A stretch of DNA of 64,000 nt from a bacterium (lineage in GTDB: Bacteria > Patescibacteriota > Minisyncoccia > Phycocordibacterales > UBA9973). Below the pieces are notes generated by a model, which ran no database searches, had not been told where the DNA came from, and saw only the letters and a list, made by a program, of their open reading frames with translations. A program made the position numbers and the translations under genes. Positions 1 to 50,979 of the stretch are shown one piece after another (position 1 is the first letter of the stretch; every line of letters begins with the position of its first letter). The DNA lies in assembly GCA_037143195.1 (NCBI GenBank), contig JBAWZD010000002.1, positions 140,620-204,619 of the forward strand, read 5' to 3'.

Positions 1-940
1 ATGTGACGACATTGAGTGCAATGTCTCCCCGTGTTTTTTGGAGGACTGCTTTGACGCACAGTGCGAGCATGAGTTCTTCGGACACCATTGTGCCTGTTTC
101 ATCGACGAGGACGAGACGATCGCCGTCGGGATCTTGGGCGAATCCAATATCTGCGTGCGCGATTTTCACAAGTGTTTCGAGTGTGGTGAGATTTTGAGCG
201 ATAGGTTCTGGAGCGTGTGCGAACTTCCCTGAAGGTTCGCCATTGATGATGGTGTAGGTTACACCGAGCGCGTCGAGGAGTTTGGGTGTGGTGGTGCAAC
301 CGACACTGTTGATCGGATCGAGGGCGACTTTAAAATTTTTCTTTTGAATTAAATTTACGTCAATATTCGCGAGTATTTTTTGTAGGTGTAATTCAAACAA
401 ATGTGTACCATCGCGTGGCGAGGCAGGCAGTGGTGCCGTTGCCGCAGTCGAGGACTGCTCGAGGGAGCGGTCACTCTGGTCCGCATGTATTTCATTGTTG
501 TTACGCGAGCGAGGTTTCGCAGACAAGGCAACGACACCACTGCCTGCCTCGCCACGAGACGCTTCGATTTCTCGGACTTCTGCTTCGTTCGTAAATGATC
601 CAGATGCGGTGACAAATTTCAAACCATTGTATTCGATTGGGTTGTGGGAGGCGGTGATGATTATTGCCCCGTCGGCTTTCATTTCGCGGACGAGGAACAC
701 GACTGTCGGCGTTGGCATCATTCCGAGATTGACGACGTCAAAACCGAGAGCGAGAAGTTCGTTTGTGACTGCTTCGAGGATGGCTGGTCCAGACTCGCGA
801 CCATCGCGACCTACCAGTATCGTGTGCCCGTTTCGCTTTGCAACATATGCTCCAAACGCGCGCGTATACTCGCGCGCTACGTCGAGCGTGAGCGTGTCGC
901 CCCAGATTCCACGGTAGCCCGAAACAGTGAGTGTTGGTTT
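1..940 (-). CDS. alpha-D-phosphohexomutase family protein (phosphomannomutase/phosphoglucomutase-like), N-terminal ~313 aa; 3' end beyond window
   Basis: Hand translation of minus strand from ATG at 940 (MKPTLTVSGYRGIWG...) stays open to window edge; contains ITASHNP active-site Ser loop and FAQDPDGDRLVLVDETG metal-binding loop; absent from ORF track only because no stop inside window. Confidence 0.75.
412..556. repeat. 30-bp inverted repeat (29/30) with ~85-bp spacer lying in-frame inside the phosphohexomutase CDS
   Basis: 414-443 cgtggcgaggcaggcagtggtgccgttgcc vs reverse complement of 527-556 (one mismatch); encodes an Ala/Ser/Pro/Arg-rich insertion between domain I and II. Confidence 0.6.
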
Positions 941-1936: not shown

Positions 1937-2018
1937 GAGCGATGTTTCGCAAGCATGCGAAACCGCGAGGCGGGGTCGCGCACCTTCCGAGCGACGGCGA
2001 GGAAGGATGTGTGACCGC

Positions 2019-2032
2019 ACCCTCCATCTCCA
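2019..2032 (+). repeat. direct repeat of tmRNA 3'-terminal 14 nt ACCCTCCATCTCCA (att-like)
   Basis: identical 14-mer at 1829-1842 (T-stem 3' strand + acceptor 3' strand + discriminator) and 2019-2032. Confidence 0.6.
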
Positions 2033-2077
2033 AATACAAGAAATACCTTATAAATTAAGGTTTTTCTTGTATTTTAC

Positions 2078-2106
2078 TTGACTTTTATATATAAACATGG
2101 TAATAT
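2078..2106 (+). promoter_or_regulatory. cassette promoter 1: TTGACTTTTA -35, 17-bp spacer, TAATAT -10
   Basis: cttgacttttatatataaacatggtaatat; same architecture repeated at 2657, 3297, 4176. Confidence 0.5.
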
Positions 2107-2213
2107 ATTTTTTAAGTGTTGCTTGGCCTGCTTGAGGGTATTTATTGAATCATCCCTGCTTCTTGAGAGTGGTAGAGATGATTCAATAATCTCAAACAGA
2201 AAAACGAAACAAG

Positions 2214-2411
2214 ATGAAAAATGTAATGATTCTTTTAGTGATGTTAACACCGATGATTGGCATCATGGTGTACTCGGATCTCACTGGCACAAAGTGGCCA
2301 GAACTTCCTGTTTTTATCAAGGGCGTAACTTGGATATTTGCCCTTGGATCATGTATCCAGGAACTGAGACTGCTCTATATCCTTTTAATAAAAGGGGAGA
2401 GACCAGAATAA
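2214..2411 (+). CDS. hypothetical small hydrophobic protein (65 aa), cassette 1
   Basis: ORF MKNVMILLVMLTPMIGIMVYSDLTGTKW...; downstream of cassette promoter, followed by hairpin + T-tract 2425-2460; weak RBS. Confidence 0.4.
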   Translation: MKNVMILLVMLTPMIGIMVYSDLTGTKWPELPVFIKGVTWIFALGSCIQELRLLYILLIKGERPE

Positions 2412-2460
2412 GTAAAGTATATTAATTTATAAAACCTGTCTTCGGATGGGTTTTATTTTT

Positions 2461-2650
2461 TCTATATTAGTTCATTGCTCTCGTCCCATACAGCAGGGAA
2501 CTAGCCAGTATCCGCAAGTAATTTTCGCATCGCAGGGCTACTTTGGTAATACACCCAAAACCGAGAAAGGTAATCTTGCAGGCGGTTCAACGTATTTCTC
2601 TGTGTGTCCACAATCTTAAGAAAAGCCTTACATTGTAAGGCTTTTCTTGT
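2461..2650 (+). repeat. conserved intercassette non-coding element, copy A (candidate sRNA; ends in 10-bp hairpin AAAAGCCTTA-cattg-TAAGGCTTTT)
   Basis: aligns with 3160-3296: gctctc..agggaacta.ccagta.cc..aag.aattt...ttggtaata..cccaaaac.gagaaaggta.tcttg. Confidence 0.5.
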
Positions 2651-2656
2651 TTTACC

Positions 2657-2690
2657 TTGACTTTTAGTAATATATAGTGTGTATTATAAT
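2657..2690 (+). promoter_or_regulatory. cassette promoter 2 (TTGACTTTTA -35, tattataat -10 region)
   Basis: ccttgacttttagtaatatatagtgtgtattataat. Confidence 0.45.
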
Positions 2691-2717
2691 CTAAGCTAAA
2701 CCATCTAAAATTCTTTT

Positions 2718-3113
2718 ATGAAATCAAACATTTTTTGGTACCAATACCCTCTTGCAGAGGATGAAAAAAATACGCTGAGAAAATCTGAAGTTGGGAGAGA
2801 GGTTCTCCGTCTTTACGAACTTTGCGTGCAGGGGCGAAAGACAGTCAAGCGTGTGAGATATGTTTGTTCTATTATAGTGGCCGTCATTATTTTTTTAGGT
2901 GCAAAGACAGAAACATCTTTGCTTCCGGCGGTTAGTATAAGCGTTGTTGTTTCACTTGTATTTTTTGCGTGGTCATGGTTTATCCTTACCGAGGAGAGAA
3001 ACCGAGATATCAAAGAAACAGAAGACGTCATCGCTAAATTGTGCGAAGAGCAAGGAGGTACTCAAATTGGAGGTATCCTTCAACGCATGATAGACAACGG
3101 TAGGGTGTTGTAG
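2718..3113 (+). CDS. hypothetical small membrane protein (131 aa, two predicted TM helices), cassette 2
   Basis: ORF with hydrophobic segments SIIVAVIIFLGAK and VSISVVVSLVFFAWSWFIL; preceded by cassette promoter. Confidence 0.45.
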   Translation: MKSNIFWYQYPLAEDEKNTLRKSEVGREVLRLYELCVQGRKTVKRVRYVCSIIVAVIIFLGAKTETSLLPAVSISVVVSLVFFAWSWFILTEERNRDIKETEDVIAKLCEEQGGTQIGGILQRMIDNGRVL

Positions 3114-3159
3114 GTTTAAATTATTGAAGCAGAAGTCGTTCCAAATTTATGGGGCGGCT

Positions 3160-3296
3160 TTTTCTGTTATACCAATTCCGTGCTCTCCCTGTGTCTGTAC
3201 AAAAGGGAACTACCCAGTACCCATAAGCAATTTGGGGATCATCGTGCTGGATTGGTAATAAGTCCAAAACTGAGAAAGGTATTTCTTGTATTCATA
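3160..3296 (+). repeat. conserved intercassette non-coding element, copy B
   Basis: see copy A; starts right after terminator of cassette 2 (gggcggctttttctg) and runs into cassette promoter 3. Confidence 0.5.
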
Positions 3297-3325
3297 TTGA
3301 CTTTTAAATATAAATATGTTATTAT
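3297..3325 (+). promoter_or_regulatory. cassette promoter 3: TTGACTTTTA, 17-bp spacer, TATTAT
   Basis: attgacttttaaatataaatatgttattat. Confidence 0.5.
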
Positions 3326-3417
3326 ATAAGCTGGTTTTTCTTTGAAATAGCCTTTTGTTCAAGCGCTGTGGTCGCAAAATTTGTTGCTAGAGCGCCTGAA
3401 CAAATTAGAGGCAAAAA

Positions 3418-3951
3418 ATGATAGAAGCAGCATCTCTCAGAAAGCAAAGTCTTGCATTATTTAAGCAAGCAATTTATGTTCGTGCTCGCATGAACGACGA
3501 ACAAGACCATCAGGATAATGGGACGAATACCCATGTATCTCAGTTTAAGAATCTCGGCAAAGATGTGCTCGATCAGCTAATCGCGCACTTGGACTTGAAC
3601 CAGGGAGGTCAATTTGATCGAGTGAGTCAAGTCGACCTTGCATTTTGGGGTCCGCTTACCGGGTTTACAGTTGTTGCCGAAGATGTGGCAACGAATCGTT
3701 GGGGTCAGGCTACCGTGCTTGATGTTCTGAGCGAGTTTATTGCTCGTCCGGAAAATGAAAAGAGGTTTCTTACGCACAGTTACTTTGATCCAACCTTAGT
3801 AATTATCACGTGCTATAGTACCACTTATTATCCTGACGAAAGTACTTACTTTAACATCACGCATGATCCATATGTGATTTGCGCTGATGTGAGAAAGAAA
3901 TGTATTCGCATCATAAATGATGCGAGAGTCACTCGGCAAAACCCACAGTAA
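3418..3951 (+). CDS. hypothetical protein (177 aa, soluble), cassette 3
   Basis: ORF with AGAGG RBS 8 nt upstream (aattagaggcaaaaaATG); no recognisable domain. Confidence 0.5.
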   Translation: MIEAASLRKQSLALFKQAIYVRARMNDEQDHQDNGTNTHVSQFKNLGKDVLDQLIAHLDLNQGGQFDRVSQVDLAFWGPLTGFTVVAEDVATNRWGQATVLDVLSEFIARPENEKRFLTHSYFDPTLVIITCYSTTYYPDESTYFNITHDPYVICADVRKKCIRIINDARVTRQNPQ

Positions 3952-4175
3952 TGGTGTGTCTAGTCGTAGTGTGACCTAGTGATTTTGGGTACTGTATATG
4001 TGCCTTAGCTTCAAATGGGGCGAGTTCCTTTGTTTCTCGCAGAGATAGTTCGACGCATTGTTTGAAGTTTTTGAGAAGAATATTTTCAAAAAATGGTTTC
4101 AAGTACATTACCCTTAGGAAAATCCTAGGGGTATTTTTTTATAGTAGTTTTGCCCCCCCGTGTGGCAGGGGATAC

Positions 4176-4204
4176 TTGACGTTTAGATTAGCATGTGTTA
4201 TTTT
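4176..4204 (+). promoter_or_regulatory. cassette promoter 4: TTGACGTTTA, 17-bp spacer, TATTTT
   Basis: cttgacgtttagattagcatgtgttatttt; preceded by hairpin cccttaggaaaatcctagggg + T-tract 4110-4140. Confidence 0.45.
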
Positions 4205-4242
4205 ATTATTAATAAATTCATTTCTAAATTTGCGAAAGAATA

Positions 4243-4572
4243 ATGAAAAAATTCACGATTATCGGTATTCTTATTACGCTAGCTCTTGAGGGAGTGGCGT
4301 ACCTGTTCAAAACAGAACTCCAAGACATTTTTGGGGAACTTTACATTGTGGTGTACGTGTTCATTGGTCTGATCGGTTTAGTTATTTCGCTTGCTCCTTC
4401 GACGACGGGGAGTGGAAGGAATGACAACGACGATGACAATTCTGGTGGTGTGTCATTTATGACAGATGGTCATCTTGGCATCAATTTGGGAGGGATTTCC
4501 ATCGATGTCGTAGATCACACTATTGGTCAAAACTTTGGCAACGGGATATCGAATAACAGTTTCCCATCATGA
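4243..4572 (+). CDS. hypothetical small membrane protein (109 aa; two N-terminal TM helices, Gly/Asp/Asn-rich C-terminus), cassette 4
   Basis: MKKFTIIGILITLALEGVAYLF...LYIVVYVFIGLIGLVISLA then GSGRNDNDDDNSGG...; terminator-like hairpin 4596-4625. Confidence 0.45.
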   Translation: MKKFTIIGILITLALEGVAYLFKTELQDIFGELYIVVYVFIGLIGLVISLAPSTTGSGRNDNDDDNSGGVSFMTDGHLGINLGGISIDVVDHTIGQNFGNGISNNSFPS

Positions 4573-5278
4573 AAGTAAAATGAATGTTGTTAAAAGCCCT
4601 CTCCTTTATCGGGGGGCTTTTATTATTGAGTGTCTGTCGATTGAGGGCAGATGGGTACCTCTGAGTGAATTATTGATGCAAGCGGAGCGCAGTAGATGCT
4701 TGTTTTTTAAGAAGTTGGTTAATTCCCTTGTGAGCTATCGTATCGTGGCTGATGGGGGAGTTAACCAAATGTGTAATCTTTAAAAATTATTGTATGAATT
4801 TTAGAAAAATAGGTATCATGAGATTTTCCCTTTTGAGATTTGAAAATATTGGCATCTCGCTTTGCGAATTCGCTAGTATAAACGATCACTGGTCCCTCTT
4901 TTATTTGGGGTGGGACCCAATTTATGGGATTGGTTTTTCAATCTTGTGGTTGAAAAAACATGGTTTAGACTTTAACCCTGGGTTACGAATCCTTGATGGT
5001 TCGTACGAGCCTTTTGAGAAAAATATTCTTAACAGGTTTAAACTTCGGTTATTTTTGTAATCTTGAACTAGGTCAATCTCAAACAGCAAAGTATGAATGC
5101 CTCGATTTTTGGTCGGGGCATTTTTTGTATTTCATTCATTTTACGGAGATAGAATTCAAATAAAAACGAACAAATATAAGTATCCTGAAGCCCTGTTTTC
5201 ATGTATAATGCCCCTACTTCCGAGATGCGGAGTCCTGAGTGATTCGTGCGGAGAAGTCGAAAATAACCCATATACTAT

Positions 5279-7234
5279 ATGACTACAAACAACAAAGACC
5301 CGAAGATGGACGAGGAGAAGGGCAAGGCTCCGTCACCAAATCCTAAAATGCCAGTGCCACCGACGTCGAGTCTCGGACGAAATATTCTCGTCACGGTACT
5401 CATTTTTATGATTATTACGGCTGCGTACATCTTTTTTTCTGGCAAAGCGACACCAGCAAACAAGAGTATTTCACTTTCTGAGCTCGCCAAAGATGTGACG
5501 ACCGGCACTGTAAAGACTATTGAAGTCGATGGTGATGCGCTCACGATCAAACTCCAAGACGGCTCGACGGTGACTGCCAAGAAAGAAGTCGAAGCATCGC
5601 TCTCGGAGACACTCAAAAATTACGGCGTACCTGCGGACAAAGTGAGCGCTACTGATATTACAGTGAAATCATCGACCGATGCGATGTACTGGATTTTTAA
5701 CATCGTGCCAATCGTGCTTCCAATCATCGTCATCATTTTCTTTTTCTGGTATCTCTCTCGACAGGCCAAAGGTGCTGGCATGCAAGCGTTCACCTTCGGT
5801 CAATCCAAAGCGCGTATGACTGATCCATCAGATCAGAACAATCGCGTCACATTCAAAGATGTCGCTGGAGCAAAAGAAGCCAAAGAAGAATTGAAAGAGA
5901 TTGTGGACTTCTTGAAGAATCCAAAAAAGTTTCTCGACATTGGTGCACGTATTCCAAAAGGTGTTTTGCTCACTGGTGCTCCCGGAACAGGAAAGACATT
6001 GCTTGCTCGTGCAGTAGCGGGGGAGGCGAATGTGCCATTCTTCCATCTCTCCGGTTCTGAATTCGTCGAGATGTTTGTGGGTGTTGGTGCTTCGCGCGTA
6101 CGCGACCTCTTTCAGAAGGCGAAGCGCGCCGCGCCCGCAATAGTGTTCATCGACGAGATTGACGCGGTCGGGCGCGTGCGCGGCACTGGCGTCGGTGGAG
6201 GAAATGACGAACGCGAACAAACACTGAACCAGATCCTCGTTGAGATGGACGGCTTCGAACCGAACGACAAAGTCATCGTCATGGCAGCAACAAACCGCAA
6301 CGACGTGCTTGATCCAGCCTTGCTCCGTCCAGGACGTTTCGACAGACGTGTTGTACTCGATCTTCCTGATCGTCGCGACCGTGAAGAAATTCTCAAAGTA
6401 CACGCACTCAAAAAGCCACTCGCCGAAGATGTAAATCTCGTCATTATTGCCGAGCGTACGAGCGGATTCTCCGGTGCAGATCTCTACTCACTCATGAACG
6501 AAGGTGCAATTCTTGCTGCACGTGAAAATCGAAAAAAAGTTTCGCAATTTGATCTCGTGCGATCAATCGAAAAAGTGATGCTTGGTCCTGAACGCAAGAG
6601 TCATCTTTTCTCGACAGAAGAAAAGAAAGTGACTGCATATCACGAAGGTGGCCATGCACTCGTCGCTTCAGTGTTGCCACATGCTGACCCAGTCCACAAA
6701 GTCTCAATCGTTGCACGTGGACGCGCTGGCGGATATACGCTCAAGATTCCGCTTGAAGAACGCAAACTTCAAACCAAGAGTGAATTCCTCGACGATATTG
6801 CAATGGCGCTTGGAGGAATGGCTGCGGAGAAAATGGTCTTTGGTGATATCACCACTGGTCCATCGAATGACTTGCAGGTAGCAACAGGACTTGCTCGTGC
6901 CATGGTCACACGATGGGGAATGTCAGATGTCATTGGACCTGTAGCCCTCGAAAGTGATGGCGGACGTACGATATCAGGTGGCGCACAAGCAGACGGAGAT
7001 ATGTCTGAAGCCACTCACGCAATCGTAAACTCAGAGGTCAAAAAAATCATGGACGAAGGTCTCGTTCGCGCAACACAGGTACTCACGGACCACCGCACAA
7101 CGCTCGACGCGATCGCCGACAAACTCGTCGAAGTCGAAACACTCGAACAACCTGAGTACGAAGCGATCATCAAAGCGCATGGCATCAAGCTCAAGAAGAA
7201 AGTTGATGTTGTCGCCGAACTTGCGAAAGCGTAG
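5279..7234 (+). CDS. ftsH: ATP-dependent zinc metalloprotease FtsH
   Basis: N-terminal TM, AAA Walker [18 protein letters not shown], second-region-of-homology, HEGGHAL zinc motif; extended -10 TGTATAAT at ~5206. Confidence 0.95.
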
Positions 7235-7320: not shown

Positions 7321-7393
7321 CCACCCTTAGCTCAGTTGGTTAGAGCATCGAGCTTATACCTCGAGGGTCCTTGGTTCGAATCCAAGAGGGTGG
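7321..7393 (+). tRNA. tRNA-Ile with anticodon UAU (anticodon loop cTTATAc)
   Basis: acceptor CCACCCT/AGGGTGG, D-arm GCTC-agttggtta-GAGC, anticodon stem TCGAG/CTCGA, T-arm CTTGG-ttcgaat-CCAAG, discriminator A. Confidence 0.7.
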
Positions 7394-7400
7394 ACATTCT

Positions 7401-8402: not shown

Positions 8403-10560
8403 ACTTCTAATTTTTTTATATCTAGAATTGCCTTCATGGCGGGGTAATTCGTCATGTGCGGGTCACGCGTAATGAGCGCGCTCGCTTCCGCTCGCGCAGC
8501 CTCCACCATTTTTATATTCCGTATAGCCTCCATCCCAAGATCGGTGATGCCCCATTGTTTGGTGCCTCCAAGTTCACCTGCACCACGGAGTGCGAGGTCG
8601 TGTTCTGAAAGTTCGAACCCATTTTTCGCTGTTTTGATTGCGTTCAATCGGTCGGCTGTCTTTTCTGATTTTGTTTCGGCGAAGAGGTAACAGTAGGCTT
8701 GGTGATTGCTTCGAATGACACGTCCACGGAGCTGGTGAAGTTGGGCGAGACCAAAACGCTCCGCACCCTCGATGATGATGAGCGTTGCGTTGGGGACGTT
8801 CACTCCAACTTCAACGACACTTGTTGCCACGAGAATATCTATTTTGTGTGAGGAGAATTCTTCCATGACCGTGTCCTTTTTTGCAGGTGTCATTTTGGAA
8901 TGCAAAATACCAATCGTGTATTCAGGGAAAATACTCGTGCGAAGATGTTCTGCTTCGGCAGTGACTGAACGCGCTTGCACTGCCATTTCTTTTTCTGGAT
9001 CCGGCTCATCGATGCGAGGGCAGATGACGTATGCTTGGCGACCATTTTCGAGTTCCTTCCTGATGAACGCGTAGACAGCGTCGCGACCGTTTGGGAGGAC
9101 GATCTCGGTAATGATTGGTTTGCGACCCATTGGCATTTCATCGAGAATGGAAAGATCGAGGTCGCCGTAGATGGTGAGTGCAAGTGTGCGGGGGATTGGA
9201 GTCGCCGTCATTGAGAGGAGGTGTGGAGCAAAGCCTTCCTTCGTCACGAGCTTCTTTCTCTGCATGGTGCCGAAGCGGTGTTGTTCGTCGATGATGGCGA
9301 GGGCGAGGTGTTTGAATTTGACACTCTTTTGAATGAGCGCGTGCGTGCCGATGAGGATTGGGATTTCACCATTCGCGACCCATTTCAAAAGTTGCGTGCG
9401 TGAAATTGCCGTCCACGGTTCTTTTGCTGACGCGACTTTGGTCGGGAACTTGCGACAGCCCGATCCGGTGATGAGCCCGACAGAGATGCCGGTGTGTTTG
9501 AAGTAGTTGATGAAATTTTCAAAATGCTGAGTGGCGAGAATTTCTGTCGGCGCCATGTAGGCGACCTGAAGATTGCCGTAGGTTTTGCCGTCGGGGCGAG
9601 TCTTGATCGTCGCGTACGAAAGTGTGGCTGCGACCGCGGTTTTGCCTGAGCCGACGTCTCCCTCGAGCAGACGTGCCATCGGATGAGGCTTTGCCATATC
9701 GGTGAGCATTGTCGCGATTGCATTTTCTTGCGCGCGCGTTTGCTTGAACGGAAATCGTCCGACGAAATCAGCGATATCATCTGGATTGTAATTGACGGGG
9801 AATGATTTGTTTTCTAAATAGTTTTCGCGTTCGATTTTGCGAGTGAGTTGGATGAAAAAAACCTCTTCGAAGCTAAATCGCTTGCGTGCTGCCTGCGCGT
9901 TGTTTTCTGTTTGGGGAGCATGCATCCAGACGAGTGCCGTCGAGAGTTTGGGGAGATTGTATTTTGCGAGCATTTCGCTCGGGAGATAGTCGTCGAGATT
10001 TTGTACGAGTCCTGATTTGAGAACCTTTTGGATCGTGTGATATATGAAGCGCGAGGTGATACCACGAGTCTCACGGTAAATGGGGAAGCCAAATATTTCT
10101 GCGGCCTCGCGGTCTGCACCAAAGAGCGATCCATGCATGTCGATCGGGAGTGCATTCTTTTCTTTGAGTTCGGGATTGGAAAGATAGATACCGTTTTTGC
10201 CTTCGGCGATTTTGCCGGAGAGTTCGACGGTGTCACCTTCGTGAACCATTTTGGCCATATAGGCTTGATTAAACCAAATGATACCGATGCGTCCTGAACT
10301 ATCTTCAAGCTCTGCTTCACCCATAGGCATTTTGCTTTTGAAAGCTTTTCGAGTTTTGAGTTTGCCGATGCGACCGTAGAGAGTGACGGTGTCGCCGACG
10401 ACAGCATCGCGAATGAGTTTGATCTCACTCACGTTCGTGTAGCGAACAGGGAAGTAGTAGAGCATGTCACGAATGGTTTTGAGACCAAGACGGGCAAGCG
10501 CTTTTTTCTGTTCCTCGCTTGTTCTGAAATGTTTAACTAAATCGTCACTTAAATACATAT
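8390..10560 (-). CDS. recG: ATP-dependent DNA helicase RecG
   Basis: wedge/OB N-terminus, helicase motifs GDVGSGKT, DEQHRFG, C-terminal helicase domain; start taken at MYLSDD (ATG 10560) rather than GTG at 10603. Confidence 0.9.
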
Positions 10561-10692
10561 GGCTAGTATAGCGCAAAGTGCGCACATGTACTTGAAAAAG
10601 CACCGGCGTAAAATCCTGAAGGATTTTCGCCTTATTCTCGCGCCGTCGCGCTCCGAAGATGCTTTTTCAAGTACATGTGCGCACTTTGCGCT
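10561..10692. repeat. 42-bp near-perfect inverted repeat (41/42) with 48-bp spacer between response-regulator gene and recG
   Basis: 10561-10602 ggctagtatagcgcaaagtgcgcacatgtacttgaaaaagca vs reverse complement of 10651-10692; spacer holds nested hairpin aaaatcc-tgaa-ggatttt. Confidence 0.8.
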
Positions 10693-10708
10693 ATGCTAGC
10701 CAGCCGTG

Positions 10709-22035: not shown

Positions 22036-22103
22036 CTTAGTATAGGAATTATATAAGTGCTTGATTACAAAATAGTTTTTATAAAGTACGGCTTCACTAT
22101 CTG

Positions 22104-22189
22104 CGGAGGCGGTGAGATTCGAACTCACGGAACCAATTAAGGTTCGACGGTTTAGTAAACCGTTGATTTAAACCACTCATCCACGCCTC
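22104..22189 (-). tRNA. type II tRNA (Ser-like: long variable arm, discriminator G) with unusual anticodon loop uuACUaa
   Basis: RC reads GGAGGCG-tg-GAT..ATC-a-ACGGT-ttactaa-ACCGT-c-GAACC-ttaatt-GGTTC-c-GTGAG-ttcgaat-CTCAC-CGCCTCC-g. Confidence 0.6.
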
Positions 22190-22264
22190 CTGTTTCGCAC
22201 TGATGCAGTATAGCTTTTATCGTGAAATAGGCAAGGCGAATTGTTTTTGTATATAATAGTACAC

Positions 22265-23839
22265 ATGCGTATACATAAAATAGTTTATGTCTTGATGATC
22301 GTGGCAGTTGTATCTCAAGCGGGTGCTCGGTTTGCACAGGCATCGGGTACAGCACCCACTGTTTCAATAACCATGAGTGATACCAATCTTACTGTTGGCG
22401 AAACAGCGACAGTTGATTTTCTTTTTACAGAAGCACCAGTCAATTTTACTTTGAGCGATGTGATGGCGACAGGAGGGACACTTTCAAATCTCACGACGGT
22501 GAGTGCTTTTGAATACCAAGCAGTGTTCACTCCGACGAGCAATTTCGTCCAGAGCGCAAACAGCATTACCGTTGCTCCCGAGGTCACCATGAGAAACTAT
22601 GTTCGACCAAGCGATTATCCCGACTCTGTTGCATATGATGGCACGAATATTTGGGCCGCCAACTATATGCCTGATGGCAGTATTTTTAAACTCGCTCCAG
22701 ATGGCACTGTCACCGAGTACAGTGGTGACGGCAATTACCACGAAGCGATTGCATTTGATGGTACCAACATGTGGACTGCAAATATTTTTGACAACAGTGT
22801 CACCAAATTTAGTCCGTCTGGTGTGCCGACGACGTATTCGAATACAGGGGCAAGTCCACACGCGCTTGCGTTTGATGGTACCAACATGTGGGTAGCCAAT
22901 ACGAATGATGATAGCGTGGCAAAGATTGGACCGACAGGAACGGTGACGACATATACGAGTGTTGGGGGTGGGCCGAGAGGCATCGCTTTTGACGGTACCA
23001 ATATGTGGACGGCGAACTCACAGGATAATAGTGTTACGAAAATCACGCTCACAGGAACTAAGACTACATATACGGGAACAGGGTCGGCTCCAGTTGGAAT
23101 CACGTTTGATGGGACCAACATGTGGACGGTCAACGGAGGAGATCGCAGTGTAACCAAAATTACACCATCGGGCTCGATGACGACATATACAGGCACGGAT
23201 ATTCAGCCAATATCAATCACGTTCGATGGCACAAATATTTGGACTGGAAATTACAACAATCACACACTCACCAAAGTCACCCTAGCAGGAGTCATGACTA
23301 CATATGCTGGATTGTCTGGAAGTCCATACTCGCTCCTCTTTGACGGCGCAAACATTTGGTCGGCAAACTTAGGTTCCAACCCTGGTCTTACCAAGATTGG
23401 AACTACTTCGACCACTATGTCATCGTCGTACTCGATTGATACGAGGCGCCACACGAGTAGACCAGCTCCGATAGTGGCACCGACGGCAACTAAAACTGCG
23501 AATGGGGGAGACGGAGTCCTTGATTTCGTCCTCAACGACGGTGCGAAAAAAACGAATTCTCCAATCGTGACAGTGCACCTGAATGGAGATCCGAGTTCTG
23601 TTCGAGGCTATGCAGTTTCGCTTGATCCGAATTTCACTACCGGAGGAATTCGTGCGTATACGAATGTAAACCAGACTGATACATTTACACTCCCTGATAC
23701 AGAGGGGACATACACTGTGTATCTTGAGTATTTTTCAACGACAGGTATGAAATCTTCGGTGATACAAAAAGACATTACCTACACGAAAAAGGTTGTAACA
23801 AAATCTTCTGTAAAACGAAAACGAGTTTTGAAGAAATAA
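22265..23839 (+). CDS. secreted beta-propeller-like repeat protein (8 tandem ~40-aa repeats AFDGTNMW(T/V)AN..D.SV.KI.P.G..TTYT)
   Basis: signal peptide MRIHKIVYVLMIVAVVSQAGARFAQA; repeats visible in translation. Confidence 0.65.
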   Translation: MRIHKIVYVLMIVAVVSQAGARFAQASGTAPTVSITMSDTNLTVGETATVDFLFTEAPVNFTLSDVMATGGTLSNLTTVSAFEYQAVFTPTSNFVQSANSITVAPEVTMRNYVRPSDYPDSVAYDGTNIWAANYMPDGSIFKLAPDGTVTEYSGDGNYHEAIAFDGTNMWTANIFDNSVTKFSPSGVPTTYSNTGASPHALAFDGTNMWVANTNDDSVAKIGPTGTVTTYTSVGGGPRGIAFDGTNMWTANSQDNSVTKITLTGTKTTYTGTGSAPVGITFDGTNMWTVNGGDRSVTKITPSGSMTTYTGTDIQPISITFDGTNIWTGNYNNHTLTKVTLAGVMTTYAGLSGSPYSLLFDGANIWSANLGSNPGLTKIGTTSTTMSSSYSIDTRRHTSRPAPIVAPTATKTANGGDGVLDFVLNDGAKKTNSPIVTVHLNGDPSSVRGYAVSLDPNFTTGGIRAYTNVNQTDTFTLPDTEGTYTVYLEYFSTTGMKSSVIQKDITYTKKVVTKSSVKRKRVLKK

Positions 23840-23903
23840 AAGGGGGACGATGCGCACAAAAAATCGCCACACTCGTGTGGCGATTTTTTGTGCGCACCGT
23901 CTA

Positions 23904-40759: not shown

Positions 40760-41890
40760 ATGAACCTGTTTACAAAAATCATGGCCGAATTCAACCTAAA
40801 CGCTTTGCGTGGAACACCTTCAGTCGAGATTGCCGTTGGCGTCGATATTGGTACTTCGAGTATCAAACTCGTTGAACTCAAAAAAAAGAATGGTCGCGCA
40901 GTGCTTGGGACGTATAGCACGCTGGCGCTTGGTCCGTATGCGAATCTTGACGTTGGTGCAACGACCAACCTTTCTTCTGATATCCTCGCGAAGGCGATTG
41001 GAGATGCACTCAAAGAAGGTTCAATCAGTACTCGAGATGCGGCACTTTCGATCCCATCCTCGGCTTCACTCGTATTTTTGCTTGATCTTCCTGCTGCGAT
41101 TACTGAACGAGAACTTCCGAGTATTGTTCCAACAGAGGCACGTAAATTTATTCCGGTGCCAATTTCCGAAGTAACTCTTGATTATTGGGTTATTCCACAT
41201 CGTCAAGAAGGTTTTTACGAAGATGAGCGCAGTAAATCGGAGGTTGTGCCATCAAAGACCGAGGTGTTGACTGCTGCCATTCATAACGACACGCTTTCGA
41301 AGTACCGTGACCTTACAAAAATTGCTGGGTTGAATTGTGATGTATTTGAGATCGAAGTTTTTTCTTCAATTCGTTCCACATTTGCGCACGAGCTTTCTGC
41401 GGTCCTTCTCGTTGACTTCGGTGCGTCCAAGACCAAGCTCGCCGTTGTCGAATACGGTATCGTGCGAAGTTTTCATATCATCAACAAAGGTTCATTCGAC
41501 ATTACTTCAAACATAGCCAACTCACTCGCCGTATCCTTCGCAAAGGCAGAGGATATGAAGCGTGATATTGGTATCGTTGGAAATGGCAACAATCGTGCGG
41601 CATCTGATGTCGCCAAACTTGTCGTTGATTATATTTTGTCTGAAACACAAACAGTGATTCAAGCTTTTGAACGCAAATACGAGAAACCAATTTCAAAAGT
41701 CATTCTTACCGGTGCGGGGTCGCTTCTCCCTGGGTTCCGTGAACACGCGGTCGATGTATTTCGTACTGAAGTTGTGTATGGTAATCCGTTCGACAAAGCT
41801 GAAGTTCCAGAGTTCGTAGCCAAAGTTCTTGCAGAAACGGGGCCAGAGTTTGCGGTTGCGCTCGGTCTCGCACTTCGAAAGCTTGGATAA
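40760..41890 (+). CDS. pilM: type IV pilus assembly protein PilM
   Basis: AVGVDIGTSSIKLVEL actin-like ATPase N-terminus, length 376 aa. Confidence 0.8.
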   Translation: MNLFTKIMAEFNLNALRGTPSVEIAVGVDIGTSSIKLVELKKKNGRAVLGTYSTLALGPYANLDVGATTNLSSDILAKAIGDALKEGSISTRDAALSIPSSASLVFLLDLPAAITERELPSIVPTEARKFIPVPISEVTLDYWVIPHRQEGFYEDERSKSEVVPSKTEVLTAAIHNDTLSKYRDLTKIAGLNCDVFEIEVFSSIRSTFAHELSAVLLVDFGASKTKLAVVEYGIVRSFHIINKGSFDITSNIANSLAVSFAKAEDMKRDIGIVGNGNNRAASDVAKLVVDYILSETQTVIQAFERKYEKPISKVILTGAGSLLPGFREHAVDVFRTEVVYGNPFDKAEVPEFVAKVLAETGPEFAVALGLALRKLG

Positions 41891-42916
41891 ATGCAAAACA
41901 TCGACTTTTCATTCGCTCAAGATCCGAACACACTTTCACTTGCACTGATTGCGGGTGTTATTCCTGCACTCATTTGGATTTTTTTCTGGATTCGAGAAAC
42001 ACGAGAACGTCCGCGCACTTTTGGTTCATTCTTTTTTGCGTTTCTCGGTGGAGTGTTTATGGTGGTGATGGCACTGCCTGTCGAAAAATTCATGCTTGGA
42101 TTTTCAAATGATCCGAACACTCTCACGGTGTTGTGGGCGGGGAGTGAAGAAGTGTTGAAGTTTCTCGCGTTCCTCCTTGTGCTCTTCATGTCTTCGTCTA
42201 TCGAATCGCCGATTGATTACCCAGTGTACATGATGATTGTCGCGCTCGGATTTTCTGGATTTGAAAATTCATTGTATTTTCTGCAACCACTACAATCGGG
42301 GACAACGACGATTCTTATTCTCGCCGGCTCGATGCGTTTTCTTGGAACAACACTCATGCACGCAGTAGTCAGTTGTCTGCCAGGAATTGCGCTTGGGTTC
42401 GCCTATTTCAAAAATCGCACGACAAAATGTATTTCTGCGATCGTCGGACTTTCGCTCGCAATTACGGGACATAGTTTGTTCAATCTTTTTATTACCGAAA
42501 AACCAGACATCACTTTTTTTACGATTCTCGCCTGTGTCTGGTTCCTCACCATCGTTATTATGATTTTGTTTGAGCGACTTCGTGCAAATGGGAGTGCTGA
42601 AAATTTACAGAGACGCAAAAATATGGCGATTGCCACACTCGAGCGTGCATTTTCTGATTTGCTCGTGAGTACAGATATGCATGAGACTGATACTGAAGCG
42701 ATACTTGCAGGTCTTACCAAAAAGGGCGTTGCGCCCGACGCACCACTCCATGGAGAATTAGACTATTTGCTCCAGTCACTGAGAGAAGCCTATAGTATTT
42801 ATCTTGTGAACCAAGGTGCGAAGAAAGATGACGCTATTCGAGCGACACGATCTTTGATTTCCGACACCGTTTCTCCTCGCGCAATCGCAGGAATTATTTC
42901 TGTTTTAAAAAAATAG
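41891..42916 (+). CDS. polytopic membrane protein, PrsW/CPBP-like intramembrane metalloprotease family (motif-based)
   Basis: ~8 TM; EExxK (GSEEVLKF) and HxxxN (GHSLFN) motifs. Confidence 0.45.
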   Translation: MQNIDFSFAQDPNTLSLALIAGVIPALIWIFFWIRETRERPRTFGSFFFAFLGGVFMVVMALPVEKFMLGFSNDPNTLTVLWAGSEEVLKFLAFLLVLFMSSSIESPIDYPVYMMIVALGFSGFENSLYFLQPLQSGTTTILILAGSMRFLGTTLMHAVVSCLPGIALGFAYFKNRTTKCISAIVGLSLAITGHSLFNLFITEKPDITFFTILACVWFLTIVIMILFERLRANGSAENLQRRKNMAIATLERAFSDLLVSTDMHETDTEAILAGLTKKGVAPDAPLHGELDYLLQSLREAYSIYLVNQGAKKDDAIRATRSLISDTVSPRAIAGIISVLKK

Positions 42917-42986
42917 GACATCCACAGCCTTTTGCTCTATACACCTTGCGTCGGTTGTACTACAATAGGGACAGTGCATAGCTTGT

Positions 42987-43730
42987 ATGGATAACACAAA
43001 CGCTAGCTTTCAAACATCATTCATTCCAAAGAAGCCACTTGCTGAAGAGCGAGTGGTTGCTCCGCGTCATACTTCGATATTTTCATTTCTCGCAACGCTC
43101 ATTTTCTTTGGTTCACTTGCGTCTGCCGGAGCAATTTATTTCTACCAAGCAAATTTGTTGAAGACGAATGCAGACAAGAGCGCGCAGATTACCGCAGCGC
43201 GAAATTCGTTTCAACCAACACTCATCAAAACACTTGAGAAGCTTGATCGTCGTATTACTGATGCCAAGTCGCTGCTCGGAAATCATATTATGGTTTCACC
43301 AGTGTTCGAAGCGCTTCAAGTGAACACACTCAAGAGTATCCAGTTTACAAAATTCTCATACACAACACCGGTTGATCCATCCGCACCAATCACCATTCAC
43401 ATGAGCGGTAAGGCGCGTGATTATGGTTCGATCGCACTTCAGTCAGACCAGCTTGCAAAGAATGTAAATATTCACAACTCACTTTTCTCAAACCTCGCAC
43501 TCGATGCTCAGACGGGAACAGTGTCCTTTGATCTTGAGTTTACTGTTGATGCGGATCTTGTTCGTTTCAAAAATCATTTGGATGATTTTTCTGTACAACA
43601 ACCAAGTGGTACTATAGATACGACAGGGCAGACAGCACAGCCTGTACCGGCGCAAGCTACGAGCGTAAATCCTACAACTGTCTTCCCGCCATCTGGTTCG
43701 ACGAGTAATTCTGTTCCTGCAACACAATAA
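42987..43730 (+). CDS. PilN-like bitopic pilus assembly protein
   Basis: single N-terminal TM, position between pilM and pilO-like. Confidence 0.45.
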   Translation: MDNTNASFQTSFIPKKPLAEERVVAPRHTSIFSFLATLIFFGSLASAGAIYFYQANLLKTNADKSAQITAARNSFQPTLIKTLEKLDRRITDAKSLLGNHIMVSPVFEALQVNTLKSIQFTKFSYTTPVDPSAPITIHMSGKARDYGSIALQSDQLAKNVNIHNSLFSNLALDAQTGTVSFDLEFTVDADLVRFKNHLDDFSVQQPSGTIDTTGQTAQPVPAQATSVNPTTVFPPSGSTSNSVPATQ

Positions 43731-43735
43731 CCTAT

Positions 43736-44311
43736 ATGAGATTCATTCTTCCAATTATTTTGCTTGCACTTTCTCTCGGATTATTTTTCGAGTATACGAA
43801 CCCCGCGTATCAGTCGCTTTCTGCGCAGCGAGCGCTCGCAACGAAATATGACACTGCGCTTACGAATGCACGCAAGCTTACCGAAGAGCGTGATGTACTC
43901 AACCAAAAGTACCGCGCACTTTCAGAAGACTCACTCGCGAGACTCTCGAAATTGTTGCCTGACAATGCGGACAATATTCGTCTCATTATTGATATCCAGC
44001 AAATGGCACAGAGTTACGGTATGTCGTTGAACTCAATCAAATTTGATTCAGCAAACGGTGCATCTGCAACTCCGAGTCAACTTTCAGCTGTTACGACACT
44101 TGATGCGACACAGGCATCGAAGGATTACGGTATTTTCAATCTTCAGTTTACGACAACAGCAACGTACGCGAATTTCCAGAGTTTTCTCAAAGACGTAGAA
44201 TCAAGTTTGCGTCTTACCGATATTCAGTCGATTGATTTTGCTGCTGCAGATCCAGCGAAGGGGACAACAATATTTACCGTGAAGTTGCGCACCTATTGGC
44301 TCAAAGGATAA
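43736..44311 (+). CDS. PilO-like pilus assembly protein
   Basis: N-terminal TM + coiled coil, 191 aa, cluster context. Confidence 0.45.
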   Translation: MRFILPIILLALSLGLFFEYTNPAYQSLSAQRALATKYDTALTNARKLTEERDVLNQKYRALSEDSLARLSKLLPDNADNIRLIIDIQQMAQSYGMSLNSIKFDSANGASATPSQLSAVTTLDATQASKDYGIFNLQFTTTATYANFQSFLKDVESSLRLTDIQSIDFAAADPAKGTTIFTVKLRTYWLKG

Positions 44312-44315
44312 TTCT

Positions 44316-44978
44316 ATGAAATCTATTATTCGGAACATCATCATTATCGCAGTCGTACTCATTCTTGGCGTTATTGGCTACAAGATGTTCTTTGGAAGTA
44401 CGACGAGTACTCCGAAGGCCAGTCTGCAAACGACTGCTGGGGTAGGAGCTGGTACGTCGGCTCTACCTCAAATCGCAGCGACGACTCCGGCCTCGGCGGC
44501 AGATGCTGGCACGATTGGGACAGACTTTTTGAATACGCTCCTCTCAATCGAATCCATCTCACTTGATGATTCTCTCTTTACAAGTAAAGAATTCACTGTA
44601 CTTCAAGATTTCAATCGTCCAATTCCACCTGATCAGAATCCAGGCCGTTTGAATCCGTTTGCTCCAATCGGTGCAGATGGTGTTGTTTCGACTGTTCAGG
44701 TTTCAACGAGTAGCCCCTCCTCGGTCACTGGTACATCGGCGACATTGAACGGCACACTCCTTGTTGGAGATGCGACAACAACACGATGGTTTGAATATGG
44801 AACAACGAGCTCACTCGGTTTCATGACAACACCAAAACCTCAGACGACGCAAGGTGCCTTTACGGAAGTAGTTACAAAGCTCCTTCCAAATACAACGTAC
44901 TATGTGCGAGCAGATGCATTGATAGGAGGTGCGACTGTGCTTGGAAATGTGTTGACGTGGAAGACGGCCCAGAAGTAA
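44316..44978 (+). CDS. PilP-like protein with C-terminal Fn3-like domain
   Basis: TM anchor; SATLNGTLLVGDATTTRWFEYGTTSSLG...PNTTYYVRA repeat-domain signature. Confidence 0.4.
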   Translation: MKSIIRNIIIIAVVLILGVIGYKMFFGSTTSTPKASLQTTAGVGAGTSALPQIAATTPASAADAGTIGTDFLNTLLSIESISLDDSLFTSKEFTVLQDFNRPIPPDQNPGRLNPFAPIGADGVVSTVQVSTSSPSSVTGTSATLNGTLLVGDATTTRWFEYGTTSSLGFMTTPKPQTTQGAFTEVVTKLLPNTTYYVRADALIGGATVLGNVLTWKTAQK

Positions 44979-44999
44979 CGCGTACGAATCAAACATACA

Positions 45000-46730
45000 A
45001 TGACATTCATTGAGGAATTAGTACAACGAGGACTTGTCGCCCAAGATCAAGTAGGGGATATTTTACGTGTCGCAAGTGAGAAATACGGTGGCAACCTCGA
45101 AGAATCAATCATTGCACACGGTGTTCCAGAAAACACGCTCCTCGCAGAAAAAAGTTCGTATTACAATTTGCCATCTCGTCCTATCGATCCAAAAACGGTT
45201 CGCGGAGATATTCTCAAATATATTCCAGAAGATGCTGCGCAACACTATCACTTTGTACCACTTGGTATCGAGGCTGGAGCGTTGCTTGTAGGAATTACTA
45301 ACCCCGAGGAGACTCAGGCAGGTGATGCTCTTCAGTTTATTACTGACGGGCACGGCGGAATGCCGTACAAATTGTTTGTTATTTCCGAACGCGTGTTCAA
45401 AGCTATTTTGCAAAACTATAGTGGCATGAGTGGTCAGGTCGACAAGGCACTGACTGATTATGGGAATGAGTCAGGGCAAAATACTGATATCACGATCGAT
45501 GATCCTCGCACGGCCCAAGAAAAATTGAAGCCAGGAGAAGAAGAAAAAATTGTCGAGGAGGCGCCAATCATTAAAATCGTTGCCGTGATTCTCAACAATG
45601 CAGTTGAAGGAAATGCCTCTGACATTCATATTGAAAACACTGGAGAAAAAGTGAAGGTCCGATTTCGTGTGGACGGCATTTTGCATACATCACTTGTGCT
45701 TCCGATGACAGTCTATGCCGGTGTGGTTGCCCGTATCAAAATCTTGTCCAAACTTCGTCTCGACGAAAAGCGCAAACCACAAGATGGGGGATTCTCTGCT
45801 ACGATCAATGCTCGAAAGATTGATTTTCGTGTTTCAACATTGCCTTCGTACTACGGAGAAAAAGTTGTGCTTCGTATTCTCGATACCGAGAAGGGCGTAA
45901 AGGCGCTCGATACAATCGGCCTTTCTGCTGAACATATGGCAATGATTCGCGACGCACTCGCTCGACCATACGGATTGATTTTGGTTACCGGTCCGACAGG
46001 GTCTGGAAAATCTACGACCATTTATTCGATTTTGAATGAGCTTGATAAAGAAAAGTACAATATTGTGTCGCTCGAAGATCCGGTGGAATATCACATTCCT
46101 GATGTAAACCAGTCACAGGTCATGCCTGAGATCGGCTATACCTTTGCGTCCGGACTCCGCTCTATTCTTCGTCAGGACCCAGATGTCATCATGGTGGGAG
46201 AAATTCGTGATGCCGAGACTGCTCAGCTCGCTATTCAAGCTGCGCTCACTGGACACATCGTGCTTTCAACACTTCACACGAATAATGCGATTGGTATCGT
46301 TCCTCGCTTGATTGATATGGGTATTGATCCGTATTTGATTGCTCCAACGCTCACGCTTGCGATCGCGCAACGCCTCGTGCGTATGACGTGTGTGTCGAGC
46401 CGCCATCAGGCAGAGAATCAAGAGAGTCTCAAGGAAATGGCTACCAAGCAGTTTGCCGACTTACCTGATGAGTTCAAGTCGAAGCTTCCAAACGGAATGT
46501 TTACTGATGCGATACCCTCTGCTGAGTGTCCAGGGGGGACTCGCGGTCGCTTGGCTGTCTTTGAAATGTACCAAAACGACAAGGATCTCCAGGCCCTTAT
46601 TTTGAAGAAACCGGTTGAAACCGATATCTATCAGCTTGTTCGAGGCAAGGGATACCTCACGATGCGCGAAGATGCAATTCTTAAGTGTATTGATGGGAAA
46701 ATTCCGTTCCAAGAGATTTACAATGTCTAA
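45000..46730 (+). CDS. pilB: type IV pilus assembly ATPase PilB (GspE family)
   Basis: GspII_E N-domain, Walker A GPTGSGKSTT, Asp/His boxes, tetracysteine CVSS...CPGG. Confidence 0.9.
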   Translation: MTFIEELVQRGLVAQDQVGDILRVASEKYGGNLEESIIAHGVPENTLLAEKSSYYNLPSRPIDPKTVRGDILKYIPEDAAQHYHFVPLGIEAGALLVGITNPEETQAGDALQFITDGHGGMPYKLFVISERVFKAILQNYSGMSGQVDKALTDYGNESGQNTDITIDDPRTAQEKLKPGEEEKIVEEAPIIKIVAVILNNAVEGNASDIHIENTGEKVKVRFRVDGILHTSLVLPMTVYAGVVARIKILSKLRLDEKRKPQDGGFSATINARKIDFRVSTLPSYYGEKVVLRILDTEKGVKALDTIGLSAEHMAMIRDALARPYGLILVTGPTGSGKSTTIYSILNELDKEKYNIVSLEDPVEYHIPDVNQSQVMPEIGYTFASGLRSILRQDPDVIMVGEIRDAETAQLAIQAALTGHIVLSTLHTNNAIGIVPRLIDMGIDPYLIAPTLTLAIAQRLVRMTCVSSRHQAENQESLKEMATKQFADLPDEFKSKLPNGMFTDAIPSAECPGGTRGRLAVFEMYQNDKDLQALILKKPVETDIYQLVRGKGYLTMREDAILKCIDGKIPFQEIYNV

Positions 46731-46794
46731 AGCTTTCCACTCTATGCAACGCGGTTGTGCTATACTATAATGGTCACAGACAACGAATAATAGT

Positions 46795-47187
46795 ATGCCA
46801 AATAAAAAAATCTTCATCGTAGACGACGACAGCTTTCTCCTCGACATGTATGCACTCAAATTCTCGCAATCGGGATATGATGTGACGACAGCGCTTGGGG
46901 CTCTTCCCGCACTTGAAAAACTTCGCGGGGGAACATACGTTCCTGACATTATCCTGCTCGACATCGTCATGCCAGTCGTCGATGGATTTGAATTTCTTGA
47001 GAAAATGCGTGCCGAAAGTCTCGCCCTTGGTGCAATCCGAATCGTCCTTTCAAATCGTGGACAAGAAGCAGACATCGCTCGAGGCAAAGAGCTCGGTGCT
47101 GCAGGATATATCGTGAAGGCCTCGACAACTCCAGCCGAAGTTATTACTCAGGTTGCAGACATTATTTCAAAGATTGAGAAAAAATAA
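46795..47187 (+). CDS. response regulator receiver protein (CheY/PilH-like)
   Basis: KKIFIVDDD...LLDIVMPVVDG...K receiver. Confidence 0.85.
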   Translation: MPNKKIFIVDDDSFLLDMYALKFSQSGYDVTTALGALPALEKLRGGTYVPDIILLDIVMPVVDGFEFLEKMRAESLALGAIRIVLSNRGQEADIARGKELGAAGYIVKASTTPAEVITQVADIISKIEKK

Positions 47188-47192
47188 TCACT

Positions 47193-48251: not shown

Positions 48252-48264
48252 TTTTTGAGTACCT

Positions 48265-49470: not shown

Positions 49471-49571
49471 TATTTGTTTTCCACAACCTGCTTTGCTCAT
49501 GGCAAAGGACGAAAAGTGCTATAATTACAAACAGTACAGGAACGCAATATTATTACTAGTCACTATAAAGT

Positions 49572-50051: not shown

Positions 50052-50065
50052 TTGCTCTCTATGTA

Positions 50066-50100
50066 AAAAAGCTCGCGCCCGAAAGGGCGCGAGCTTTTTT
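50066..50100 (+). terminator. intrinsic terminator after pilin gene
   Basis: aaaaaaGCTCGCGCCCgaaaGGGCGCGAGCtttttt. Confidence 0.8.
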
Positions 50101-50154
50101 GTACACATACATTACTCAGTTTTATTTATGAGCTGTAGTATAATAAGCAGAGAA

Positions 50155-50976: not shown

Positions 50977-50979
50977 AAA

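Follow-up and report, generated by a model that had tools for sequence, protein, structure and literature searches.

The window analysed here is the whole of a 64,000-nucleotide stretch of DNA from a patescibacterium (contig JBAWZD010000002.1, positions 140,620 to 204,619), and inside its alpha-D-phosphohexomutase gene lies a hairpin unit of 149 bp that is translated as part of the linker between the first two domains of the enzyme. This unit is probably, though by no means certainly, a foldback repeat of the kind represented by the Rickettsia palindromic elements (RPEs), selfish or neutral in character and lodged in a permissive linker, with template switching or recombination between the arms reshaping both the arms and the spacer. 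Its core is conserved as DNA and not as peptide, because copies occur in both orientations and in different phases.

A repeat search delimits paired arms of 33 nt each at 411-443 and 527-559, complementary at 31 of 33 positions (94%). A preliminary description of this DNA, made from the letters alone, had placed arms with 29 matches in 30 at 414-443 and 527-556, and blastn of the arms returns the same limits (96.7% over 30 nt) within the longer pairing; the spacer, which had been put at about 85 bp, measures 83 nt. The 19-nt arm core GGCGAGGCAGGCAGTGGTG is found exactly twice in the 64 kb, once in each arm, where 0.03 occurrences are expected, and none of 100 shuffles reached two. Folded as RNA, the sense strand of the unit gives -98.5 kcal/mol compared with -55.7 +/- 4.2 for shuffles (z = -10.3), and the opposite strand gives z = -7.6. 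The probability that the hairpin is a chance inverted repeat or an assembly artefact, such as a fold-back chimera, is negligible. All that speaks for an artefact is the general fact that amplification chimeras can make inverted duplications; against it stand the arm-core expectation, the folding z near -10, and the recurrence of this architecture, at an identical codon position, in separate assemblies of many samples, which together effectively refute it.

The unit lies wholly inside the minus-strand open reading frame (ORF), in frame and free of stops at codons 129-178, and translation of the ORF returns the Ala/Ser/Pro/Arg-rich peptide quoted in the preliminary description. Pfam places PGM_PMM_I at residues 8-129 (E = 2.9e-35) and PGM_PMM_II at residues 186-284 (E = 3.2e-22), so that the unit, at residues 129-178, occupies the gap between domains I and II. 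It also falls between the catalytic motif TASHNP (residues 97-102) and the metal loop DPDGDR (residues 271-276), as had been described. The PGM_PMM domains, the TASHNP phosphoserine loop and the D-x-D-x-D-R metal loop identify the gene as an alpha-D-phosphohexomutase; the best PDB relatives, 1wqa and 2f7l, are archaeal and bacterial phospho-sugar mutases whose alignments break across residues about 118-184, and domains III and IV, which lie beyond the window edge, are present in orthologues. In an AlphaFold2 model of the 85%-identical orthologue P0001 (41 sequences; pTM 0.89), the flanking domains have pLDDT values above 90, residues 129-176 lack secondary structure, and residues 139-170 fall below a pLDDT of 50. 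On this model the insert is predicted to be a disordered loop of about 33 extra residues between two well-folded domains, and we infer that the enzyme is unaffected by it. As expected of an RPE-like insertion, the modelled site is one where the fold tolerates extra sequence, and the 149-bp unit falls within the range of about 100-150 bp for a hairpin translated in frame without stops.

Linker inserts were measured as the distance from the catalytic to the metal motif in 120 close homologues and in a separate set of 129 loci fetched from many phyla. The closest homologues, most of them 442-448 aa in length, come from Candidatus Paceibacterota/Pacebacteria, a group within the candidate phyla radiation (CPR). 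From the catalytic Ser to the metal motif the window protein spans 174 aa, where most orthologues have about 141. Of the 120 homologues, 91 lie at 139-148 aa and 29 at 150-196 aa, while among the fetched loci 103 of 129 fall at 139-148 aa (mode 144) and only CPR loci lie at 164-185. The extra length of the inserted homologues falls entirely in the domain I/II linker. Orthologue comparison, which the preliminary description had proposed as a check, thus confirms that the segment is extra relative to most PMM/PGM proteins; the accompanying statement that other family members have only a short linker there is true of most of them, and fails for the 29 Paceibacteria orthologues (about a quarter) with inserts at the same site. 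Because so many carry one, the insert appears to be a recurrent or long-lived feature of this linker and not the product of a single insertion. On a tree built with the linker masked, the inserted genes form several clades interleaved with uninserted ones.

DNA was fetched for 20-odd inserted orthologues, and most of these have long inverted repeats flanking a spacer of 43-149 nt. The arms measure 47 nt in L001 (87% complementary), 33 nt in L083 (100%), 30 nt in L164 (97%), 30 nt in L165 (93%) and 35 nt in L166 (100%), and 16-30 nt in L101, L092, L104, L088, L102 and L004. In 102 uninserted loci, inverted-repeat scores are 6-13, no better than shuffled expectation. The inserted peptides are mutually unalignable; the underlying DNA aligns, in both orientations. 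Other, unrelated-looking inserts occupy the same linker in P0107, P0111, P0117, P0087, P0099, P0095 and P0072. The high G and P content of the encoded peptides (for instance ..GGGEESRTSPLPSPYKGEGG..) suggests further hairpin families, and the linker of L087, which encodes P0072, holds short internal hairpins only.

The core of the window unit, here termed type 1 (AAEDC-type), is common to five orthologues, namely the window gene, L001, L164, L165 and L166, the last three of which encode proteins 55-58% identical to that of the window. Between the window plus strand and the coding strand of L001, 32 of 32 nucleotides agree at 443-474 and 26 of 27 at 501-527, compared with only about 80-88% identity in the arms and the remaining gene. 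When the window unit is flipped in silico it encodes ..AAVEDCSRERS..LLRERGFADK.., which is the native peptide of P0001 in the same phase, and because of this the window core is inverted in place relative to L001/P0001. The segment between the inverted repeats therefore exists in both orientations, as in an inverton, between lineages only. A type 1 covariance model, R2, scores the window element at 160.6 bits on the plus strand and 58.5 bits on the minus strand, and the predicted structure is a long irregular hairpin with conserved internal loops. Scanning with R2 found no type 1 core outside the phosphohexomutase linker in the 64-kb window or in about 200 kb of its relatives. In the type 1 element of P0012 (L166, 10418-10566) the spacer reaches 149 nt, of which about 100 nt are additional AT-rich sequence at the apex and may represent an insertion nested within the element.

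Iterated nhmmer searches, followed by a covariance model, R1, revealed a second core, type 2. It is carried in the sense orientation of the phosphohexomutase gene in L101, L097, L091, L102, L100, L110 and L083, and antisense in L103, L005, L104, L092 and L088. The consensus fold is a three-way junction, in which a long closing stem is joined by two hairpins, one of 4 bp with a GNCG loop and one of 7-10 bp with a YAGYA loop. Across the alignment 91.5% of cells pair and double changes occur in 27 of 35 pairs, a level of covariation that none of 500 shuffles reached, and slid controls give 32-54% pairing. Both small hairpins covary (for example GGCT/AGCC with GCGC/GCGC, and AATTTTC/GAAAATT with CCCGCG/CGCGGG), and the junction nucleotides are conserved. 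On the aligned strand, to which the alignment was itself fitted, G.T cells number 25 and A.C cells 8.

The two types are linked by the 82%-identical orthologue P0002, which has a type 2 core at a position identical to that of the window's type 1 core, and by a common insertion site, a common architecture and short end motifs, TTGnCGCAG ... GCWGACARRA, read by eye. Since R1 does not recognise the window element, we infer, and do not report as a result, that types 1 and 2 are homologous members of one family. Decay is seen in P0003, whose linker matches the 3' half of the P0002 element, and in P0098 and P0114, whose linkers are a truncated type 2 peptide. The P0003 linker is accordingly a deletion derivative and not the ancestral state. 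The idea that the whole insert arose as an inverted duplication of the native linker, with P0003 as ancestor, was rejected for the core, because R1 identifies the P0002 insert as type 2 and the P0003 linker matches its 3' half, and was kept for the outer arms.

Comparison with known RNA families was negative, in that Rfam gave no match at or above its gathering thresholds; matches to MIR1437 (42 bits, threshold 168) and MIR9486 (39.5 bits, threshold 100) are spurious hits of plant microRNA models on a generic long hairpin. Hammerhead, twister and other ribozyme readings, prompted for instance by CUGACGAG in some copies, were discarded, as the motif is not conserved across copies and has no Rfam match. 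Promoter and terminator scans around both window elements returned nothing specific. In viral contigs, pattern scans for type 1 came back empty and those for type 2 gave seven chance hits that R1 did not confirm; a scan of genome contigs with the family alignment returned mostly other phyla, the patterns being generic.

Type 2 cores are also dispersed between genes (Table 1). The window's other large inverted repeat is such a copy, filling the gap between the stop of a response-regulator gene (10709) and the start of recG (10558), and three of the four intergenic sites recognised by R1 have an empty orthologous site. The spacer between the response-regulator gene and recG is 150 nt in the window compared with 21 nt in L176, and an orthologous spacer is 142 nt in L165 compared with 2 nt in L164. 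Furthermore, recG and the CNNM gene overlap in the window and in L174, and in L175 a 128-nt unit with perfect 34-nt arms lies between them. No target-site duplication is seen in these three filled and empty comparisons. The core of the window's intergenic copy is flipped relative to that of its closest relative, L174, whose RecG is 96% identical. The metagenomic contig L174 (1-107) has its start precisely where arm and loop of the intergenic element meet, as would be expected if both orientations coexist in the sample, but this could simply be an assembly break. In L175, a perfect 44-bp palindrome at 1228-1271 (22-nt arms, no spacer) stands directly after the response-regulator gene and has a weak R1 match of 18 bits.

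Table 1. Positions of the hairpin units, their parts and the host gene, given in window coordinates unless a relative's locus is named.
Feature	Position	Strand or side	Content	Remarks
Host gene: alpha-D-phosphohexomutase (PMM/PGM/GlmM-like), N-terminal 314 codons	1..943	-		ORF start 943; runs off window at base 1
Left arm (+ strand)	411..443	gene's C-terminal-side arm	encodes ..TAPLPASPRDG..	outer part homologous to native linker of uninserted orthologues (DNA or peptide)
Type 1 core (83-nt spacer)	444..526	+ (antisense to gene)	reads GCAG-TC-GAGGACTG ... TTACGCGAGCGAGGTTTCGCAG-AC-AAG	inverted in place relative to L001/P0001
Right arm (+ strand)	527..559	gene's N-terminal-side arm	encodes ASRGEAGSGVVA	inverted copy of left arm
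Type 2 element, intergenic	10560..10702	-	arms 10560-10602 / 10660-10702 (43 nt, 98%); 57-nt core 10603-10659	R1 81.3 bits, E = 2e-17 at 10570-10694
R1 intergenic match	L165 20532-20630			59 bits
R1 intergenic match	L175 4676-4801			66 bits
R1 intergenic match	L088 802-907			49 bits

Dispersal within one genome is thus represented for type 2 by a single intergenic copy in the window, with others in relatives, and type 1 has no second copy in the scanned 64 kb. A HMMER search of 1.84 billion representative proteins with the flipped window peptide gave only spurious, eukaryote-like tandem-repeat proteins; being restricted to one frame and to 50%-identity clusters, it had low power. All copies found within ORFs by these means are in the phosphohexomutase linker, and the presence in several unrelated protein families that would be typical of an RPE-like element is not seen. 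The analogy with RPEs drawn in the preliminary description is therefore apt for the in-frame palindromic unit itself and does not extend to its distribution, since related copies occur only in this linker and in intergenic DNA.

The arms vary from copy to copy, with only their inner 15-20 nt alike across the family. Searching for other copies of the 30-bp arm, as had been suggested, returned none in the 64 kb, a result that carries no information, since each copy has arms of its own and it is the loop core that is conserved. Some of the arm sequence is that of the host. The native recG leader TTTGCGCTATACT occurs once in L176 and once in L177, and in the window's intergenic element it constitutes the right outer arm, the left outer arm being its inverted copy. 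The uninserted locus L178 encodes ..LRSDAYVDAKIPGRRTDG.., and the native DNA that codes for PGRRxDG there is the counterpart of the right outer arm in L164, where the left arm is an inverted copy of it. Another uninserted locus, L179 (P0004), has at codons about 130-140 a perfect 10-bp hairpin, GCGCGGCGGC-GTCC-GCCGCCGCGC, which encodes GAAASAAA and is homologous to the window arms; it is either an 'empty' remnant left after loss of a core or a pre-existing palindrome into which cores insert.

This anatomy is not that of a classical miniature inverted-repeat transposable element (MITE), because the units have neither termini conserved between copies, the outer parts of the arms being host-derived, nor a target-site duplication in the three filled and empty comparisons. 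No transposase or recombinase was recognised among 30 mid-size ORFs of the window; an IS1595-type gene is present in L166. Template switching between the arms of inverted repeats is known to homogenise and expand the arms and to invert the spacer (PMC8604942, PMC13100816, PMC8794818), and can itself yield apparently compensatory changes (PMC8794818). Recombination between the arms would likewise turn the spacer round and keep the arms alike, and both kinds of event are established for inverted repeats.

The explanation that we favour would place the unit in a Paceibacteria (CPR) family of small foldback repeat elements, each copy of which would comprise a nucleotide-conserved, structured core inside long, near-perfect arms that evolve fast. 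One such copy would have lodged in the coding sequence for the PMM/PGM domain I/II linker, where it is translated in frame as about 33 residues predicted to be disordered, and would persist because the linker tolerates almost any peptide. Related copies at orthologous sites would come and go, with decay through internal deletion. The arms would not be ends recognised by a transposase; template switching in replication, recombination between the arms, or both, would keep them paired, lengthen them into the host flanks and invert the spacer. Most likely the element contributes nothing to the working of the enzyme and is selfish or neutral DNA. The preliminary description had likewise seen a small palindromic element tolerated as a surface loop, in keeping with a segment that is extra compared with most orthologues, is of the hairpin repeat type and is disordered in the P0001 model, and its picture needs revision in anatomy, in that the spacer is conserved and the arms are partly host-derived, and also in scale, since inserts have occupied this linker repeatedly throughout a group of phylum rank, in either orientation and with erosion and turnover.

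Several observations weigh against a selfish or neutral foldback repeat. It does not account for one linker of one gene having been hit, or having retained its inserts, so often, and the low-power search found no in-frame copy in another protein family. The type 1 core of the window was found in this gene only (five orthologues, about 200 kb scanned), and its link to type 2 is indirect, R1 scoring the window's phosphohexomutase element at only 4.3 bits. No target-site duplication, conserved terminal repeats or transposase were seen. Finally, both the covariation of the small internal hairpins and the perfect identity of the core over 32 nt, in genes about 85% identical, would also fit a functional element.

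These last two points also speak for an alternative, which we hold to be distinctly unlikely, that the core, long stem included, is a selected RNA or single-stranded-DNA motif, for instance a site of processing or binding, a small RNA, or an element that regulates the mutase mRNA in cis. Conservation of the junction nucleotides argues in the same direction, and the excess of G.T over A.C cells hints at a strand-specific fold. Yet that bias came from an alignment fitted to the strand in question, template switching can mimic compensatory changes (PMC8794818), and no Rfam match rises above noise. Furthermore, in about half of the copies the strand that folds has the sense of the mRNA; in the others, that of the window among them, it is antisense, and close relatives (P0003, P0021 and P0004) are entirely without the core, as are the empty orthologous intergenic sites. 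A purely local origin, by which a template switch duplicated and inverted the native linker without any mobile element and the likeness to other hairpins is convergent, is improbable, even though the outer arms are demonstrably host sequence and its inverted copy, the uninserted P0004 already has a hairpin homologous to the window arms, and the type 1 core was met nowhere outside this gene. The literature also documents that inverted repeats can be created, homogenised and expanded, and their spacers inverted, by template switching (PMC8604942, PMC13100816). It is the core that resists such an origin, since one spacer sequence is common to orthologues only 55-60% identical (the window, L001 and L164-L166), the type 2 core occurs both in the linker and at three unrelated intergenic sites (E 1e-9 to 1e-17), and filled sites differ from empty ones by a whole 130-140 nt.

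The inverted orientation of both window elements relative to the nearest available relatives (L001 and L174) raises the further prospect of a programmed intragenic inverton, in which a site-specific recombinase would flip the spacer and so switch the linker peptide, or some strand-specific signal in the core, as a form of phase variation. Invertons within genes have been described (bioRxiv 10.1101/2023.03.11.532203). On the gene tree the orientation classes are intermixed, either orientation of the window unit can be read without a stop, and the L174 contig starts exactly at an arm/loop junction. Against these stands the finding that only 6 of 13 units stay open when flipped, so that there is no selection for dual coding, and eight protein clusters at 90% identity contain no flipped pair. 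The 30 mid-size window ORFs provide no recombinase or transposase to do the flipping; L165 and L166 have serine recombinases near smpB, but these are of the large integrase type and stand beside the tmRNA site, and copy-specific arms do not fit recognition by one recombinase. As the enzyme is cytoplasmic, phase variation would bring no obvious benefit, and a programmed inverton is very improbable. Compared with the foldback repeat that we favour, a bolder proposal, and a rather unlikely one, is that the units are an undescribed CPR mobile hairpin element whose identity would reside in the structured core, with insertion without target-site duplication, arms built from host flanks, frequent flips, and repeated colonisation of, or retention in, one linker. 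A mobile core of this kind would therefore imply either that insertion is targeted to hairpins or loops or that the core acts, as single-stranded DNA or RNA, in a strand-specific manner.

The remainder of the window has several features of its own. Rfam places a transfer-messenger RNA (tmRNA) gene at 1437-1845 (110 bits) that ARAGORN did not call. The sequence of its 3' end, ACCCTCCATCTCCA (1829-1842), recurs at 2019-2032, after which a stretch of low GC content (0.40-0.41) follows (region 2000-6000), an arrangement that looks like an element integrated at the tmRNA gene. In the relatives, large serine recombinase genes lie beside smpB/tmRNA in L165 (4550-5839) and L166 (7538-9121). A LAGLIDADG homing-endonuclease ORF (58834-59514, Pfam E = 7e-18) stands just after two tRNA-Met genes (58322-58393 and 58688-58763), and ARAGORN places a tRNA-Ile (anticodon TAT) at 7321-7395 and a tRNA-Ser with the unusual anticodon ACT at 22103-22190. 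Type IV pilus clusters are common in CPR bacteria, and the one at 40760-53850 encodes PilM, PilO, a T2SSE ATPase, T2SSF, a prepilin peptidase, several N-methyl pilins and a PilX-like protein. A probable bidirectional terminator stands just after the ORF at 22241-23839, in the form of a 27-nt inverted repeat at 23846-23901 (96% complementary, 2-nt loop) accompanied by an A-run and a T-run.

The genomes of CPR/Patescibacteria are tiny and gene-dense, and to our knowledge their repeat content is almost unstudied; we found no literature on palindromic or MITE-type elements in them. On the explanation favoured above, a repeat family would survive inside an essential gene as a translated disordered linker, as RPEs do in Rickettsia, and the unit would offer a compact natural example, in coding DNA, of arms that stay paired, arms that are copied from the host and spacers that are inverted. 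There are practical consequences as well, as such inserts inflate and diversify orthologues and may pass for lineage-specific protein insertions, and hairpins split or break metagenomic contigs, for instance L174 at its arm/loop junction. Should the core prove to be functional, or to define a new mode of transposition, the interest would be considerably higher.

Among known systems, bacterial MITEs and intergenic palindromic repeats (Correia, ERIC, BOX and REP/BIME) resemble the present element in being small, non-coding, hairpin-forming and dispersed, present or absent at orthologous sites, and sometimes intragenic. They differ in that the present element has no conserved terminal inverted repeats, target-site duplication or identified parent insertion sequence, and is conserved in its middle and not at its ends. 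The coding palindromes of Nematomorpha mitochondria (PMC6649704) are likewise long, near-perfect inverted repeats kept in translated genes over evolutionary time; there, both arms encode conserved protein and no repeat-family core is present, whereas the present element lies in a disordered linker around a conserved non-protein core. Template-switch (quasi-palindrome) mutagenesis explains the homogenisation of arms, their expansion into flanks and the inversion of spacers, all three of which are present here (PMC8604942, PMC13100816, PMC8794818), but it is a mutational process and not an element, and alone leaves a conserved core at unlinked loci unexplained. Intragenic invertons (bioRxiv 10.1101/2023.03.11.532203) also have inverted repeats within ORFs and a segment found in both orientations with the frame kept; in contrast, half of the present copies are broken by flipping, the comparison is between lineages, and no recombinase was found among the 30 window ORFs.

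RPEs are palindromic repeats inserted in frame in Rickettsia genes (Ogata et al. 2000, 2002, as summarised in PMC10969869). As far as that summary describes them, they are hairpin repeats of about 100-150 bp, lying in frame in housekeeping genes of a small, gene-dense genome at sites that the fold tolerates, with members also outside ORFs, and in all of these respects the present element is alike. In the same account RPEs are found in numerous unrelated genes and share a conserved peptide, whereas the present element is known from the linker of one gene family, where it occurs repeatedly, and its peptide is unconserved, being read in both orientations and in different phases. Its arms, moreover, are copy-specific and partly host-derived, and it has no sequence relationship to RPEs. 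The RPE is nevertheless the closest known analogue, from which the present element is set apart by one preferred host site and by the lack of a conserved peptide or conserved ends.

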